DNA of 64,000 nt, from the NCBI GenBank assembly GCA_965261595.1, contig CBDHDG010000007.1, positions 160,001 to 224,000 on the forward strand, given 5' to 3'. The stretch is from a bacterium. Its GTDB lineage: Bacteria > UBA8248 > JACPRG01 > G963555815. This document shows positions 55,049 through 61,494 of this stretch, piece by piece. The notes under the pieces are model-generated. The model worked only from the letters and a program-made list of their open reading frames with translations, did not search any database and was not told the DNA's origin. The translations under genes were made by a program, and so were the position numbers. The stretch's first letter is position 1. Every line of letters begins with the position of its first letter.

Positions 55049-56158
55049 CTATGAACTGGATTCCGCCGCGATAAACCGACTGAGCGTAGAAGCCGTCATG
55101 TCCACCAGGGCCATGATGCGCGGGTATCGCATCCGTTTCGGGCCGATGATCGCCAGGGTCCCCAAATTTCTTGAGCCGTCGCTGTAGGTCTTCATGACGA
55201 ACGCGCAATCGTTCATGGCCTCGACTTCGGTCTCCGGCCCGATGCTGACGGAAATCCCCTCCGCCTCCACGAACCGGTCCAGGATCTCAACGAGCTTTTC
55301 CTTCTCCTGGAAGGCTTCGAACAGCATGCGCATTTTCTCGACGTCCGTCTGGAACTCCGGCTGATCGAAGATGTGGTGGGTTCCCCAAATGTAGAATTCG
55401 TCGGTTTCTTCAGGTGATTCCAGAAACGCCTTTTTGCTCAATTTCAGCGATTCACGGTACAGGATATCGAACTCTTTTTTGTGTTCGAGCATCTGAAGAG
55501 AGATCCGCCGGCGAACCTCCTGGAGTGTCAGGTCTTTATACTCTTCGTTCAAATACCGGCTCATCCTATCGAGGAACTCCTGGGAGAGGTCTTCCTCCAT
55601 CTCGATGGACCGGTTTTGGGTCCTCCCATTCTTGGTCACCACGATCACGTGCGCGAGATTCGGCCGGAGCCGGACAAGGCGGATCTGGCTCAAGACCGTC
55701 CTGGAGAGATTTGGAATCAGGACCAGGCTGGCTTGTTGCGTCAACGAAGAGAGCAGCTTGGAGGTCTGCTCCAGTAAACCCTCCAACCCCGAAGACCGCG
55801 TTTCGCCATAACCGATTCGGATCCTTTCCACCTCCATCTCGGAGAGGGCGGGCAATTTTTTGACCTGATTCACATAGAACCGGTATGCCTTGTCGGTGGG
55901 GACGCGTCCGGCGGAGGTGTGGGGTTGACACAGAAATCCCAATTCCGTGAGTTCGGCGAGCTCGTTCCGGATGGTCGCCGAGCTCAGGTTTCTGACATAC
56001 TTTTTAGCGAGCGTCTTGGAGCCGATCGGCTCATTCGTCTCGACGAAGCTGGAGAGCACCCCTTGCAGGATGTCCTGCTGACGAACCGTCAGGTTTGTCG
56101 CGCCGGATAACATTGCGGACCTTGCTCCCGAGAATACTCTCGCCTGGGGAGCGACCAC
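55049..56158 (-). CDS. hrcA: Heat-inducible transcription repressor
   Basis: EPIGSK, SSATIRNE, QPHTSAGRVPT, IIGPKRMRY; start may be 56113. Confidence 0.97.
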   Translation of the reverse strand: MVAPQARVFSGARSAMLSGATNLTVRQQDILQGVLSSFVETNEPIGSKTLAKKYVRNLSSATIRNELAELTELGFLCQPHTSAGRVPTDKAYRFYVNQVKKLPALSEMEVERIRIGYGETRSSGLEGLLEQTSKLLSSLTQQASLVLIPNLSRTVLSQIRLVRLRPNLAHVIVVTKNGRTQNRSIEMEEDLSQEFLDRMSRYLNEEYKDLTLQEVRRRISLQMLEHKKEFDILYRESLKLSKKAFLESPEETDEFYIWGTHHIFDQPEFQTDVEKMRMLFEAFQEKEKLVEILDRFVEAEGISVSIGPETEVEAMNDCAFVMKTYSDGSRNLGTLAIIGPKRMRYPRIMALVDMTASTLSRFIAAESSS

Positions 56159-56400
56159 GCTAAAATTGAGCCGCTATCCCAAAAACTAGCAACCCCGCCC
56201 AAACTTGTCAATCGGAAACCCGCACCGCTTGACAGCCCTTGACCGACCTGAGAGACTTCCGGTGGCAGTTTTACACCTTACATTTCCGATGGTTCTGAAG
56301 GATTAATCCGTGATTATGCCTTTGACGCAGTAAGACACAAGATATAGGTGCGATTTTGAGACACTACATGTTGTGGTTATCCAACAGGAGGGGGTCACTT

Positions 56401-56616
56401 TTAGGGACCCGTGGAACCACATATCCTCCCATTGATGATGGCTGGTGGCCCGACGTAAGAGCCCCGAATTTCGAGTGGGATGCGTTTCTTCGGCGGTTTC
56501 TTATTCCTTATCCCCATCAAGTAGAAACCCGCATAGAAGAGAAGATCAATAACCCTAGAGGCTGCTTCGGAGATGAACCATCCAAAAACGTCAAATCCTT
56601 CATATCTAAATTCCAT
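56401..56616 (-). CDS. Small hypothetical cargo protein
   Basis: ATG GAA start inside hairpin unit 1 with upstream GGAG; no recognised family. Confidence 0.4.
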   Translation of the reverse strand: MEFRYEGFDVFGWFISEAASRVIDLLFYAGFYLMGIRNKKPPKKRIPLEIRGSYVGPPAIINGRICGSTGP

Positions 56617-56685
56617 TGCCTGGGCTCTCCAAGCTGCGGGTTAATGGAACGCCACGGCTGGGGCCGTATACCCCAGCCGTGGCAC

Positions 56686-56973
56686 TTATTCACACGCGAT
56701 GTCCTGTTGCGCCGATGCAATCCTCACTTCAAATTCACCGGCAAACCTGAATATCACCTTCTCAAGTTTGGGACTATTGAGATACCTATGTTGGGGCGGG
56801 TGTTTCCTGACAAAAAATACACGCCTCCGCTTTTTGTTGAATCTTCCTCCAAGTCTCTCTACGGCCAAGTAGTCTCTGTCCTGAAGAACCTGCACCAGCA
56901 GTTTAAGTTTTCTCGGGGAGACATAGGCGGGTCGGCTAAAAGCCTTTTCCTTAAGAAAGCATTTTGCTTCCAT
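56686..56973 (-). CDS. Small hypothetical cargo protein, paralogue of 57067-57417
   Basis: RBS AAGGAGG; shares CF..PAYV..L.DRD..LG..HP..YL.S..FRF.GEF.V..I.C with its neighbour. Confidence 0.75.
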   Translation of the reverse strand: MEAKCFLKEKAFSRPAYVSPRKLKLLVQVLQDRDYLAVERLGGRFNKKRRRVFFVRKHPPQHRYLNSPKLEKVIFRFAGEFEVRIASAQQDIACE

Positions 56974-57066
56974 TGCCCCAGTCCTCCTTCAAGGTTGGGT
57001 GGTGATGGAACCGCAGCGCCAGGGGCGGGATCCCCTGGCGCTGCACTTGTAAATCTTATTTTCCAC

Positions 57067-57417
57067 CTATTTGCACGAGATGAACTCGCACAACGTCTCA
57101 AAAACCTTGAATTCCCCTTCAAAACGGAAAGTCGTAGAGCCAGGGATGCTCTTCAGGTATTGGAATCCTTTTGGATGCTCACTCACCATGAAAATACGCC
57201 ATTTCTCCTTTGCGTTTCGGTATCCAAGTTTATACAAAGCTACCAAATCGCGATCGTCCAACATGCGAAGTATGAGTTTTCTTCGTTCCAAATCCACATA
57301 AGCGGGGCTGTACACCGCACCTTTTCCGATAAAACAGGCCTTGTTGGATTCTCCAGCCATGACGGCGGAAGATGCGATGAGGGCAGTTGTAAGTATGCAA
57401 CCGCCGATAGTACGCAT
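57067..57417 (-). CDS. Small exported hypothetical cargo protein
   Basis: Signal peptide MRTIGGCILTTALIASSAVMA; paralogous to 56686-56973. Confidence 0.75.
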   Translation of the reverse strand: MRTIGGCILTTALIASSAVMAGESNKACFIGKGAVYSPAYVDLERRKLILRMLDDRDLVALYKLGYRNAKEKWRIFMVSEHPKGFQYLKSIPGSTTFRFEGEFKVFETLCEFISCK

Positions 57418-57657
57418 GGGCAGACCCCCAGAAAATCGAGGTTGACACGGGCTTGGGGATTTGCTACAAGGAGGGTCTGTGAGGTCCTCTCTTGTAGCAA
57501 CGCCCCGGGGTTCCCTCGGGGCTTCCACCCTTTGAAGTTCCATATACCACATGTAGTGGGTCGGATTCAATTTTCGAGGGACCACCATATCTTGTGTCTT
57601 ACTGCGTCAAGGGCATAATCACGGATTAATCTGCAAGATTCAAGCCTATTTCACCCC

Positions 57658-58431
57658 ATGCGCGCAAATATCCGACGGAACCGAAAAATGACGCGGAATT
57701 TGTTGTTGGATATCTATGAGCGCCTGCTTCACCACTTCGGGCCGCGCGGATGGTGGCCGGGAGAGACTCCCTTTGAGGTCTGCATCGGGGCCGTTCTGGT
57801 CCAGAACACCTCGTGGACGAACGCCTCCCGGGCCATCGCCAACCTCAAGGCGCGAAAGCTACTCTCCCCGGAGGGATTGCGGCGAATCCCGAAATCCCGG
57901 CTGGCGCACCTCATTCGCCCCGCCAGGTTTTTTAACCTCAAGGCAGACCGCCTCAAGGCGTTCGTCCGATTCCTCTGGGTCGAACACCAAGGAAATTTGA
58001 ATCTGTTGTTCGACATCCCGGCGGAGAAACTCCGGAAAAACCTGCTGGAGCTGAAGGGGATCGGCCCCGAGACGGCCGATTCCATCCTGCTTTATGCGGC
58101 GGAATTTCCGGTCTTTGTCGTTGATGCCTACACCCACCGAATCTTTTCACGCCTCGGCCTCTACCAAGGCCCATCATCGGGCCGAAAGGGGTATGAAGCG
58201 CTTCAAGAGGGGTTTCACCGATTCCTCTCGCGCGACGCTCCTCTCTACAACGAGTACCACGCCCTTCTGGTCGAGCTTGGAAAAGAATATTGCCGTCCAA
58301 GACCCAAATGCGAATCCTGTCCGCTGTCCTCTATCTGCGCCTACCCGAGCGCCGCTCCGGAAGCATCGGTTCCAGCGGGTGTCAAAGGGAGCATCACAGC
58401 CAAATGCGAGGCAAAGGCAGAGAAGATTTGA
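57658..58431 (+). CDS. Endonuclease III-related HhH-GPD protein with 4Fe-4S cluster
   Basis: WWPGETPFEV..QNT, GIGPETAD, VVDAY, CRPRPKCESCPLSSIC. Confidence 0.92.
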   Translation: MRANIRRNRKMTRNLLLDIYERLLHHFGPRGWWPGETPFEVCIGAVLVQNTSWTNASRAIANLKARKLLSPEGLRRIPKSRLAHLIRPARFFNLKADRLKAFVRFLWVEHQGNLNLLFDIPAEKLRKNLLELKGIGPETADSILLYAAEFPVFVVDAYTHRIFSRLGLYQGPSSGRKGYEALQEGFHRFLSRDAPLYNEYHALLVELGKEYCRPRPKCESCPLSSICAYPSAAPEASVPAGVKGSITAKCEAKAEKI

Positions 58432-58448
58432 GATTTCCCGCGGGCGAG

Positions 58449-58955
58449 ATGCGCTTTGTGGCGGACATCACCGTAGGAAAGACCGCCAAGTGGCTCCGGA
58501 TCTTGGGATTCGACGCACTCTTCATGCGCAGTCTGGATATGGAATTTCTGGCCGCCCGCCTCGCGGAGGGACGCATCCTCGTCACGCGGGACAGCCGCCT
58601 CGCCAACAGGCCCGGCATGTCGAATACGATCCTCCTGGAGGCGAACGACCCCGCCGGACAGGTTGCGGATATCTTTGTCCGCCTGGGGCTGGCGAAGACG
58701 GTCATGGAAGCGGTTGGGCGGATGGAGTCCAAAGAGGAGGTGACCCGGTGGCCGAAACCCCTGTCCCGATGTATTCGATGCAACGCGCCCCTGAAGGAGG
58801 TTCCCCGGTCGGATGTCGTACTGGAAGTGCCTGATTTCACATGGGCGACCCAACCACGATTTCACCGGTGCCCCCTCTGCCGCCGCGTCTATTGGCCGGG
58901 AACACACCGCGAGAGGATCCTTTCAGCAATCGATGCCCTGAATCTGGGAAACTAA
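58449..58955 (+). CDS. Mut7-C RNase (PIN-fold, DUF82) domain protein
   Basis: RFVAD..GKTAKWLRILGFD, ILVTRD, RCIRCN, CPLCRRVYWPGTH. Confidence 0.92.
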   Translation: MRFVADITVGKTAKWLRILGFDALFMRSLDMEFLAARLAEGRILVTRDSRLANRPGMSNTILLEANDPAGQVADIFVRLGLAKTVMEAVGRMESKEEVTRWPKPLSRCIRCNAPLKEVPRSDVVLEVPDFTWATQPRFHRCPLCRRVYWPGTHRERILSAIDALNLGN

Positions 58956-59329
58956 GCAGACTTTCCGCACTGGCCCCCGGTTTCCGAATGCGGATATGCG
59001 GGCCGTTTGACGCTTATCCTCCGCCGTTTTCCCAAAATCGGACTCGCCTCCCCCCTCCGGCCCCCCATTTACAACGAATGACAGGTGAAAATACGGGTTG
59101 GATTTGAACCCCGACCTCCCAGTCATTCGAACCTTGCCCGCTCTTGGGGCAAACCTGCTCTCAGTCTTGGAGCTTTTGGGACAAATATGAGACGATTTTC
59201 GTCGAAATTGTAAAGAACGTTATCTGAGCTGAATTGGCCTCCATTGACGAATTCTATTGATCCGCTAATAATCGGTTTAAATTCAAATGGTTGTGGAAAT
59301 CTGAAAAATAATAAATTTTTTGAACCTTT

Positions 59330-59345
59330 TGGTACAATATTTGCT
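59330..59345 (+). promoter_or_regulatory. Sigma54-type -24/-12 promoter
   Basis: TGGTAC-N5-TTGCT (GG-N10-GC) in an AT-rich region upstream of ORF 59404. Confidence 0.7.
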
Positions 59346-59403
59346 CTAATCCTATAACAACGCGAAATTCAAATCTCCCAAATTTCTTCTGGAGGGAAGA
59401 TTC

Positions 59404-59637
59404 ATGTTGGCTACGGAGCAGAAAACGGAGCAGAAAACGGAAATCACCGCTGTCACGCTGGCGGACGCGGGAAAGGCATTCAGAGAAGAGGCGGAAGAGA
59501 TCGCCGAATCGCCCCAGGAAGCTGAAATCCTGGCAACCGCCGCGCTCCTGAACTATCTGGCCACCGAAAGACCCAAACTGCTTGAGCGGCCGCTGGAAAA
59601 TATCCGAAAGGGCGCCATCGTTTCAAGCCTTTCTTAA
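59404..59637 (+). CDS. Small hypothetical protein (77 aa)
   Basis: RBS GGAGG; helical composition; 12-bp tandem repeat encoding TEQK-TEQK. Confidence 0.7.
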   Translation: MLATEQKTEQKTEITAVTLADAGKAFREEAEEIAESPQEAEILATAALLNYLATERPKLLERPLENIRKGAIVSSLS

Positions 59638-59748
59638 GATTTCTCAGATCGGAATCCAAGACCACCGGCGTCTCCACCCGGGCGAATTTCCCTCCCTCCC
59701 TCTCGCCCGCTGGAGACGCCGGAAATAATTATCCCTTTCCATTTCAAT

Positions 59749-60656
59749 CGTATTTATATACTTGACACAGACGACCACAACATGTAGGTCGCGCCCGCGT
59801 CTCGGCTGACCACAAGATGTAGGGGCATGCTTCCATCGATCCGTTTCCAGAAGATGCGCTCTATCAGATCGTTCGGTTTCATTGATCGATAAAATCCACG
59901 CGCTGAATATCGCCCTTTTCATTGAAGTGTAAAAACAACTTTTTGTTTATATGCAATGTGTTGTTGGTTTTTCCTTTTCTTCCGTACTTAAACTCAAATT
60001 CAAGACCGCCCTCAAAAACGCCGCTTCTCTTCTGCTCTATAGGATATGTAGTGATCGTCAAACCACCCCATCCCTCCTGCAGGGATGGTATAGCTATTCT
60101 TGGCATATGGCTCTTTTGTCGGGTACAACTTATCAAATGTTGAGACGACATTTACAACCTCAAATGTCACCGGGAAAAGAGCTTTGTTGTTAAACGTAGC
60201 ACCAATCCGCAGTGATTTTACTACACCAGCTTTGTCGATTATTCTGTCAGTTCTCACACTATGAAAGTTAAGCATATCCGCAACTCTATTACGATACCGC
60301 CATTCGCTGAATCGCAACAATCCCATAGAGGAAACTGAAAACAGAATGACCGCTCCAACATATAGGTTGAACAACTGGATATGTTGCGCAAAACCGATCA
60401 TGACGCCAGCCGCCGTGACCGCAATGGGCCATATCCAGCTCCGCAGTAATTCACCCGCCAAAAAGAGGGCGACTTTGCGAAGCCAATTGAGCATGATTCA
60501 GTCATTGTATGATCCCTCTTCGGTTGAGTCAAGCGCATAATTGCGAATCCAACTCCACCATGACTTGAGTTGAAGCATGCCCCTACATCTTGTGGTCAGC
60601 CGAGACGCGGGGACGATCTACATGTTGTGGTCGTCTGCGTCAAGTACATAATTCCG
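59749..60656. mobile_element. Non-autonomous cassette 2 (IS1595-family-like mobile insertion cassette), 908 bp
   Basis: 85-bp terminal IRs (78/85 identical; 59749-59833 and 60572-60656); 8-bp direct repeat ATTTCAAT at 59741-59748 and 60657-60664; AT-rich cargo; no transposase. Confidence 0.88.
59879..60494 (-). pseudogene. Membrane-anchored hypothetical cargo protein with probable frameshift near 60045
   Basis: Two N-terminal TM segments; GWFDDHYI appears to continue in another frame as PIEQKRSGVFEGGLEFEFKYG to the stop at 59879. Confidence 0.6.
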
Positions 60657-60816
60657 ATTTCAATCCCAATCTCCCTCAACCCCCGGTATTTATCTCTGGA
60701 ATGCCCCGCACGCCTCTGCTACACTCTTTTTCTTGTTGGTCAGTGATCGACGGGCGCCGGGGTTTGCTCATGCCCCAATCTCCAGGCTCTGAAAACCCTC
60801 GGGGCGGCTTCAGCCA

Positions 60817-61494
60817 ATGGCCGGCATTTTGATCACCTTTGAGGGCATTGAAGGCTCGGGGAAAACAACCCAGGCGTCGCTGCTCGCCGATCGATTGCGG
60901 GAACAGGGACTTTCGGTTTTCCGCACCCGCGAGCCCGGGGGGACGCATTTGGGAGAGGGAATCCGGCGGCTCGTTCTCGATCCCGGACAGGAAGAGATTG
61001 ATCCCGTCGCCGAGTTGTTCCTCATGGAAGCCGCCCGCGCCCAACATGTGGCCGCGAAAATTCGCCCGGCGCTGGAAGCCGGAAAGGTGGTTCTGTGTGA
61101 CCGGTTCACCGATTCCACGCTGGTGTACCAGGGCCTCGCCCGAGGCCTGGAATGGAAGACGATCGAGGACGTGAACCTCCTGGCGGCGAAAGGCATTCGG
61201 CCACACACAACCATTGTCCTGGATCTGGACATCTCCGCCGGCCTGGCGCGGACGCGGACGCGGGCGGACGGTGCGGTTCAAGCCGATGGCTCTATTGATA
61301 CCGGCGAAACAAACCGATTCGATCTGGAAGACCGGAAATTTCACGAGATCATCCGGTCGGGGTTCCTGCGGTTGGCCAAAGAAGATCCCGGCCGGGTGAA
61401 AGTGGTCCGCGCCGCCGGTTCCGCGGAGGAAGTCCATGAAGAAGTCTGGAGGGCATTGGAGAAGACCCTCGAATCGGCGGCGCCATGCGGTTAG
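60817..61494 (+). CDS. tmk: Thymidylate kinase
   Basis: FEGIEGSGKTT, TREPGG, CDRFTDST..YQG. Confidence 0.98.
   Translation: MAGILITFEGIEGSGKTTQASLLADRLREQGLSVFRTREPGGTHLGEGIRRLVLDPGQEEIDPVAELFLMEAARAQHVAAKIRPALEAGKVVLCDRFTDSTLVYQGLARGLEWKTIEDVNLLAAKGIRPHTTIVLDLDISAGLARTRTRADGAVQADGSIDTGETNRFDLEDRKFHEIIRSGFLRLAKEDPGRVKVVRAAGSAEEVHEEVWRALEKTLESAAPCG

Follow-up and report, generated by a model that had tools for sequence, protein, structure and literature searches.

How did two segments with related ends and unrelated interiors come to lie 2.1 kb apart among housekeeping genes? The question is raised by a 64,000-nucleotide stretch of bacterial DNA (the window, G000:C7:160001-224000, where G000 is the genome under study), in which the original prediction had marked two transposase-less cassettes, here called A and B, with IS1595-like ends and exact 8-bp target duplications. 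The results below make it very probable that A and B are non-autonomous derivatives of the IS1595 family, that is, mobile insertion cassettes that carry passengers and have lost their transposase. We call them derivatives rather than insertion sequences (IS) proper because neither holds a transposase gene. Repeat analysis recovered the predicted coordinates, inverted repeats and duplications:

56309..57623, element A: IS1595-type cassette of 1315 bp without a transposase; the genome has 3 identical copies
56301..56308, left 8-bp target duplication of A, GATTAATC: present as a single copy in empty sites
57624..57631, right 8-bp target duplication of A, GATTAATC: from the exact repeat and empty-site contigs
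56309..56350, plus strand, left terminal inverted repeat of A: CGTGATTATGCCT TTGACGCAG TAAGA CACAAGATATAGG
57582..57623, minus strand, right terminal inverted repeat of A: from motif and repeat search
59749..60656, element B: IS1595-type cassette of 908 bp without a transposase; the genome has 11 copies
59741..59748, left 8-bp target duplication of B, ATTTCAAT: empty-site contigs skip 916 = 908 + 8
60657..60664, right 8-bp target duplication of B, ATTTCAAT: from the exact repeat and empty-site contigs
59749..59833, plus strand, left terminal inverted repeat of B: CCACAA(C/G)ATGTAGG occurs twice in direct orientation
60572..60656, minus strand, right terminal inverted repeat of B: two copies of CCACAA(C/G)ATGTAGG

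The terminal inverted repeats measure ~42 nt in A, whose arms reach 45 nt when the palindromic duplication is counted and are 98% complementary, and ~85 nt in B, where 93-nt arms are 90% complementary. All four ends match CGnnWTTATRnnnTTGACRCAGn5CACAASATRTRG with identical spacing; the core, TTGACRCAG-N5-CACAASATRTRG, has four matches in the window with 0 mismatches and none in 100 shuffles. Each end also contains one or two subterminal copies of CACAA(G/C)AT(A/G)T(A/G)G, in A with one near the right end (~57547-57559) and an extra inverted CACAA..TGTAG copy at 56364-56377. The CGnnWTTAT tips resemble what we take to be the end consensus of ISNwi1 and ISNha5. Between A and B, blastn found matches at the ends only, and both interiors (GC ~0.47-0.51 in A and ~0.42-0.45 in B) are lower in GC than the genome as a whole (GC 0.63, A+T 37%). 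The shared consensus and the unrelated, low-GC cargo of the original prediction are thus borne out. No transposase similarity was found inside A or B by tblastn with two resident transposases (E <= 1e-3), and an open reading frame (ORF) scan of the cassettes gave no Pfam match for the ORFs of either.

The insertions can be seen directly by comparison with other strains. Contigs of four public runs (X1, X5, X8 and X10) were placed on 56000-60900. Run X1 holds the filled form and is left out as independent evidence because it is probably the sample from which the genome came. X5, X8 and X10 come from three studies and represent three near-identical strains; in each, a single contig (24.4, 19.0 and 27.1 kb, respectively) bridges both sites without either element and shows ~8 differing letters across the 2.1 kb between the elements. 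At site A these contigs join 56299/56309 to 57623/57633 and skip 1323 nt (1315 + 8), at site B they join 59740 to 60657, and both empty sites hold a single copy of the 8-mer. The comparison settles an ambiguity at site A: GATTAATC is its own reverse complement, so that in A alone the duplication is not separable from an extended inverted repeat, and it is the skip of 1323 nt that identifies it as a true 8-bp duplication. The same-genus genome G001 (a 190-contig draft) aligns at 92–96% across the region and lacks both A and B; at site A its sequence, ...GAAG GATCAATC CGCAAG..., is cleanly empty and holds GATCAATC once. Contigs of X5, X8 and X10 do not cover the interior of A, nor those of X10 the interior of B, and these interiors count as "not seen" only. 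A and B are recent insertions.

Both cassettes recur across the genome, as did their end motif, with 57 matches at <=2 mismatches, 61 at <=3 (0 in the reversed control) and 68 at <=4. Twenty-one full cassettes have ends of the A or B type: 11 B, 3 A and seven shorter A forms (6 A2 and 1 A2v). The B copies are 908 bp long except for one of 907 bp and differ at 3 alignment columns; the 3 A copies are identical at 1315 bp, and the shorter A forms measure 958 bp. A-type elements are modular, with A holding both cargo units in tandem, A2 (958 bp) corresponding to A positions 1-312 joined to 651-1315, and the single-copy A2v to positions 1-663 joined to 1120-1315. Exact 8-bp duplications, differing from site to site, flank 15 of the 21 cassettes, and A+T makes up 77% of the 18 duplicated 8-mers scored, against 45% of the adjacent 20-nt flanks and 37% of the genome. 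The near-identity of the copies, together with these exact AT-rich duplications, indicates a recent burst of both cassette types confined to this strain. Among 51 genomes of the class, the end motif at <=2 mismatches has 4 matches in G006, 1 in G029 and 0 in G001.

The duplications also bear on target choice. Two B copies 15 kb apart (C7:219749 and C7:234873) hit ATTTCAAT, and GATTAATC was hit by A (56301-56308) and by a transposase-bearing relative (G000:C7:637976-637983). That two 8-mers were each hit twice independently suggests a sequence-specific preference beyond AT-richness. A preference for AT-rich targets would, in a genome of 63% GC, steer insertions to intergenic DNA.

Relatives with transposases are resident in the same genome. 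The elements at G000:C6:703409-705509 (2101 bp, duplication AAAGGAAT) and C7:637984-639734 (1751 bp, duplication GATTAATC) both have tips CGTGATTAT...TTGAC..., exact 8-bp duplications, a passenger gene and a transposase of 295 aa; the latter agrees with A at ~19 of the first 20 bases of the end and has the same target, GATTAATC, and its transposase gene lies at C7:638636-639523 on the minus strand. A third element, C6:352755-356887 (4133 bp), encodes a transposase of 339 aa (C6:355742-356761, minus strand) and has a right end 96% identical to the B ends over 72 nt; the tips of all three follow the pattern CGnnnTTAT...TTGAC. The 295-aa and 339-aa transposases match PF12762 (DDE_Tnp_IS1595) with E values of 1e-34 to 1e-39 and also PF12760 (Zn_ribbon_IS1595), and all three fall into the NCBIfam family NF033547, "IS1595 family transposase" (200–208 bits, cutoff 75). 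Their best matches in a plasmid collection are <40% identical and annotated only as "IS1595 family transposase". When the genome was searched by tblastn with two of these transposases, dozens of IS1595-type loci were found, none of them in A or B. The recurrence of the ends across the genome, the empty sites and an IS1595 transposase between ends of the same kind, all anticipated by the original prediction, were therefore found.

From the near-identical copies, their different duplications, the exact empty sites and the resident transposases, we infer mobilisation in trans: A and B would move by an IS1595 transposase supplied by a resident autonomous relative, with the subterminal CACAA(G/C)AT(A/G)T(A/G)G motif presumably serving as its binding site. 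The best candidate for B would be the 339-aa transposase of C6:352755-356887, whose end is the one 96% identical to those of B, and for A the 295-aa transposase of C7:637984-639734. How a transposase is lost is visible in this genome, because the ~1.2-kb element at C7:1038945-1040149 is a deletion derivative of the 4.1-kb element: its first 1065 nt are 99.9% and its last 150 nt 100% identical to that element, and the interval with the GmrSD-like gene and the transposase is gone. A solo A-type end at C7:850966 likewise retains, ~240 bp inside, a 28-residue remnant of a transposase C-terminus.

Other elements of the same end family carry passengers of defence type. These are a PDC-S42 candidate (PADLOC, E 1e-40) in C6:703409-705509, GmrSD_N and HNH domains in C6:352755-356887, an N6_N4 methyltransferase–Mrr_cat fusion, split by an IS3-type element, in C5:447433-450663, and a PDC-S42-like C-terminus within a 295-aa protein (E 3e-8) in C7:1227710-1229444. 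Two ORFs of 106 and 213 aa beside the GmrSD-like gene had been labelled by eye as a HicA/HicB pair; the label was dropped because Pfam and PADLOC gave no match. A literature search that covered few subscription journals turned up neither a study of IS1595-derived cassettes from this lineage nor one of IS1595 cassettes carrying defence genes.

Members of this cassette family are themselves repeatedly hit by other elements. An IS3-type element, so labelled from a reading of its ORFs (137 and 305 aa, overlapping), occurs in near-identical copies at C5:446900-451200 (L031), C6:1190400-1194500 (L036), C7:846900-851500 (L039) and C6:1032100-1036200 (L040). In a further cassette, L032, the interrupting DNA is a DDE_Tnp_1_4 element, and in the one element that we examined in genome G006 it is another insertion sequence.

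Both insertion sites are intergenic and adjoin housekeeping genes, as had been proposed. A lies between hrcA, whose start is 150 bp away, and a HhH-GPD glycosylase gene, whose start is 35 bp away; grpE and then a dnaJ-like ORF (labelled by eye only) follow downstream of hrcA. B lies 111 bp past a 77-aa ORF followed by a hairpin, and 161 bp ahead of tmk and holB. An Rfam scan of 55900-61000 at E <= 1 returned no family, and no tRNA genes are present. Upstream of the 77-aa ORF (59404-59637), a native AT-rich stretch (59100-59400, GC 0.40) contains a promoter-like TTGACG, 17 nt, AATAAT at 59244-59272; it is not mobile-element DNA, because it is conserved in G001.

What, then, do the cassettes deliver? 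In B the following features were identified:

59879..60494, minus strand, B cargo gene, frameshifted: the intact form has 204 aa; here the ORF stops at 60012 after 160 aa
60504..60532, minus strand, promoter-like site TTGACT, 17 nt, TACAAT: 10/12 consensus matches, just upstream of the B cargo start

A representative library contains 299 relatives of the B cargo at E <= 1e-3, mostly of ~200–215 aa, and because these full-length relatives align through residue 204, we regard the 204-aa form as the intact one. It is encoded by the sole 907-bp B copy (C7:234873), whose product is 82% identical to a 204-aa protein of another genome. In the window an extra A at 60044 (TAGGATATG vs TAGGTATG) shifts the frame, and the same extra base is common to 10 of the 11 B copies; X5 and X8 hold the B interior as a 797-nt contig without it. 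An AlphaFold2 model of the cargo (pLDDT 95.6) has two helices at its N-terminus, which presumably form a transmembrane hairpin, together with a beta-sandwich. The B cargo is an uncharacterised family of ~205-aa membrane proteins: Pfam searches of 67 family members gave one marginal match to DUF3311 (E 0.0098) and nothing else, and since Foldseek against the PDB returned only generic beta-sandwiches with query TM-scores <0.4, we draw no function from the fold.

It could be argued that the B cargo is still expressed at full length by programmed frameshifting or phase variation, so that a working gene is delivered after all. The same +1 insertion stands in 10 of the 11 copies, the downstream frame remains open to its normal stop and the promoter-like site is retained, as this would predict. 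The extra base, however, lies outside any homopolymer or known slippery site, relatives in other genomes, P0004 and P0006 among them, are truncated or off-frame at differing points, which looks like decay, and a single mutated founder explains the 10 copies without selection. We consider full-length expression very unlikely. Because its cargo is frameshifted, the B copy in the window delivers no intact gene; the burst was of a broken version, and B now spreads as selfish DNA. The proposal that the cassettes deliver uncharacterised genes accordingly fails for this B copy.

The cargo of A comprises the following features:

57418..57581, minus strand, conserved leader module of A, separating the first cargo gene from the right end: predicted stable fold
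57067..57417, minus strand, U2 cargo gene, 116 aa, hydrophobic N-terminus: conserved coding frame on the minus strand
57016..57041, minus strand, GC-rich hairpin between U2 and U1', GCGCCAGGGG / CCCCTGGCGC: read from the sequence; any function is conjectural
56686..56973, minus strand, U1' cargo gene, 95 aa, paralogue of U2: from frame test and alignment
56401..56616, minus strand, 71-aa ORF in the left module of A, common to all A-type cassettes: coding uncertain

The strand of this cargo had to be decided between the minus-strand pair U2/U1' and a 420-aa ORF on the plus strand (56356-57618). A frame test on two diverged cargo units gave 38% identity (66.6 bits, E 1e-19) for the minus-strand frame and 24% (25.8 bits) for the open plus-strand frame. 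Because the minus frame is conserved between the paralogous units and the plus frame is not, U2 and U1' are the real cargo, and the 420-aa ORF is ruled out as A's gene and read as an antisense shadow. The same result bears on a different view of A, in which A is autonomous and the 420-aa ORF a novel transposase. In favour of that view, a frame of 420 codons is open in sequence of ~49% GC, and it stays open in the 958-bp variants, where the length difference of 357 bp is a multiple of three. Besides failing the frame test, however, the 420-aa ORF has no Pfam match and extends across the inverted repeat as far as the final bases of A; element B, with similar ends, has no such ORF; and the minus-strand genes bear features of their own, with GAAGGAGG 8 nt before the ATG of U1' and a signal-like hydrophobic N-terminus in U2. 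That A encodes its own transposase is therefore extremely improbable, and we retain A as a transposase-less derivative.

U1' and U2 are 36–41% identical (36% at full length). The U1' of the window lacks the hydrophobic N-terminus, starting instead from a new ATG; a full-length form in the 958-bp variant at G000:C6:773267 has one. Read by eye, the N-terminal hydrophobic stretches of full-length U1 and U2 resemble signal peptides, and the cargo of A probably consists of two small paralogues, putatively secreted, whose genes are read from the right end inward. Among the 51 genomes of the class that were searched (G000 and 50 others), copies of the A cargo, 9 identical U2 and 4 U1, occur in G000 only, with no match to U2/U1' in the 50 others. 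Pfam, PADLOC and NCBIfam gave no match to the family, and a search of 5.8 billion proteins yielded no homologue (8 candidates scored, 0 passed). U2 is missing even as itself from this large protein collection, and for this reason automatic annotation may have picked the wrong strand of A. Leads for the A cargo in the Atlas, such as a lysozyme-inhibitor-like cluster, were all sub-threshold (0.85, recognition 1761) and were not used; an AlphaFold2 model from a two-sequence alignment (pLDDT 43) was unusable. The 71-aa ORF of the left module has no family match.

Upstream of U2, the 183-nt leader on the minus strand (57418-57600) has a minimum free energy of −72.2 kcal/mol (z = −3.86) and is more stable when folded than 199 of 200 shuffled versions, with no match in Rfam; its copies are identical. 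Positions 57403-57623, the rightmost 221 bp of A with this leader included, are 100% identical in the cassette ending at G000:C7:850966, which has another cargo, of 192 aa.

Several observations weigh against reading A and B as derivatives inserted by transposition. We found no transposase-bearing element with ends identical to those of A or B, and even the best end match to B, 96% over 72 nt, differs in the first five bases. The zero count of the end motif in G001 is weak evidence, because repeats may be unassembled in that 190-contig draft. At site B, G001 has no element but 12 extra bases after ATTTCAA (a 12-nt indel), which makes this empty site less than perfectly clean. Finally, 6 of the 21 cassettes have no matching duplication.

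The 12 bases (G001:C16, L042) form part of a small GC-rich palindrome at the exact insertion point of B, and the strains of X5, X8 and X10 are without them.

Five of the six duplication-less cassettes are B copies, and in four of these five a flank recurs beside another B copy, sometimes reverse-complemented. C6:1667271-1668178 and C7:905605-906512 have exactly reciprocal flanks, and of the flanks of C7:8746-9653, one is found in reverse complement at C7:29393-30300 and one at C3:129361-130268; for the other flanks of duplication-less copies no partner was found. This pattern fits later homologous recombination between B copies, as judged from their flanking sequences. The remaining cassette, an A2 copy at C6:1438540, has a solo A-type left end 86 bp upstream (C6:1438467-1438492), which may represent a nested or aborted insertion. 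Recombining B copies appear to have produced inversions or other rearrangements, among them a likely inversion of ~20 kb close to where contig C7 begins.

Swapped flanks such as those of C6:1667271 and C7:905605 might also be taken to mean that the copies as a whole spread by homologous recombination or segmental duplication rather than by transposition. Against this, 15 of the 21 copies have exact 8-bp duplications of their own that vary by site, homology between copies reaches no further than the element tips and, at most, the target 8-mer, and the empty sites are exact, so that such spread has only the slightest probability. That the segments are invertons, flipped in place by a site-specific recombinase, has next to no likelihood and less still: 45- and 93-nt inverted repeats do bracket short segments with promoter-like sites, but the 8-bp repeats outside them are direct, 21 copies lie at different sites, other strains have precise empty sites, as does G001 for A, the 11 B copies are colinear end to end with two distinguishable ends, the neighbours (hrcA, the glycosylase gene, a Mut7-C gene and tmk) include no recombinase gene, and no strand-changing joint inside A or B is listed in the run contigs, which can miss minor forms (X10 has one letters-between record, 60599 to 57594); insertion rather than inversion, as first proposed, is what the data support.

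Elements of this kind have precedents. Siguier, Gagnevin and Chandler reportedly described passenger-carrying "transporter IS" within the IS1595 family in 2009 (cited in PMC3129680), and De Palmenaer et al. are said to have described MIC231 mobile insertion cassettes in 2004. The IS1595 family is described as having terminal inverted repeats and 8-bp target duplications (PMC8101967), and A and B agree with it in both. Relatives with the same tips in G000 encode one transposase (PF12762, with PF12760 at the N-terminus) and carry passengers; the window elements differ in having no transposase, and the resident transposases in being <40% identical to their plasmid matches. The definition of mobile insertion cassettes, including MIC231 of Bacillus cereus, derived from IS231, is given in PMC3129680 and PMC3281130. 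A and B resemble MIC231 in the missing transposase, the ends of a cognate IS, passenger ORFs, a duplication of the length typical of the family, a modular build in which end modules are shared and cargo differs, and a transposase presumably acting in trans; they differ in that the parent family is IS1595 rather than IS4/IS231 and that one window cargo is a pseudogene. MITEs, or miniature inverted-repeat transposable elements, are likewise non-autonomous, multi-copy and near-identical, with the duplication of the parent family, and B with its broken cargo behaves like one; A and B are, however, larger (908–1315 bp) than typical non-coding MITEs and contain ORFs. The kind of element is thus already described, and the novelty lies in a member from an under-sampled lineage with natural filled and empty alleles.

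A broader proposal, which we regard as speculative and rather unlikely to hold as a whole, is that IS1595 ends here form a modular cassette platform, in which identical end modules, one including a structured leader, would be joined by recombination to interchangeable small cargo and moved in trans. By analogy with the defence-type genes of other members, a case of guilt by association, the orphan cargo of A and B could be uncharacterised defence or counter-defence effectors. The intact B protein could also limit copy number: B appears to have grown from about one intact copy in sister strains to 11, of which 10 are frameshifted, and inactivation of the cargo could have released the burst.

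For annotation, A and B provide a reference, as gene callers will probably miss such elements or call the antisense ORF of A. Knowledge of the mechanism of the IS1595 family is unchanged by them. They represent IS1595 passenger derivatives caught soon after a burst, with filled and exactly empty sites and with a parent and its deletion derivative in one genome, and they offer a tractable system for mobilisation in trans and target choice.

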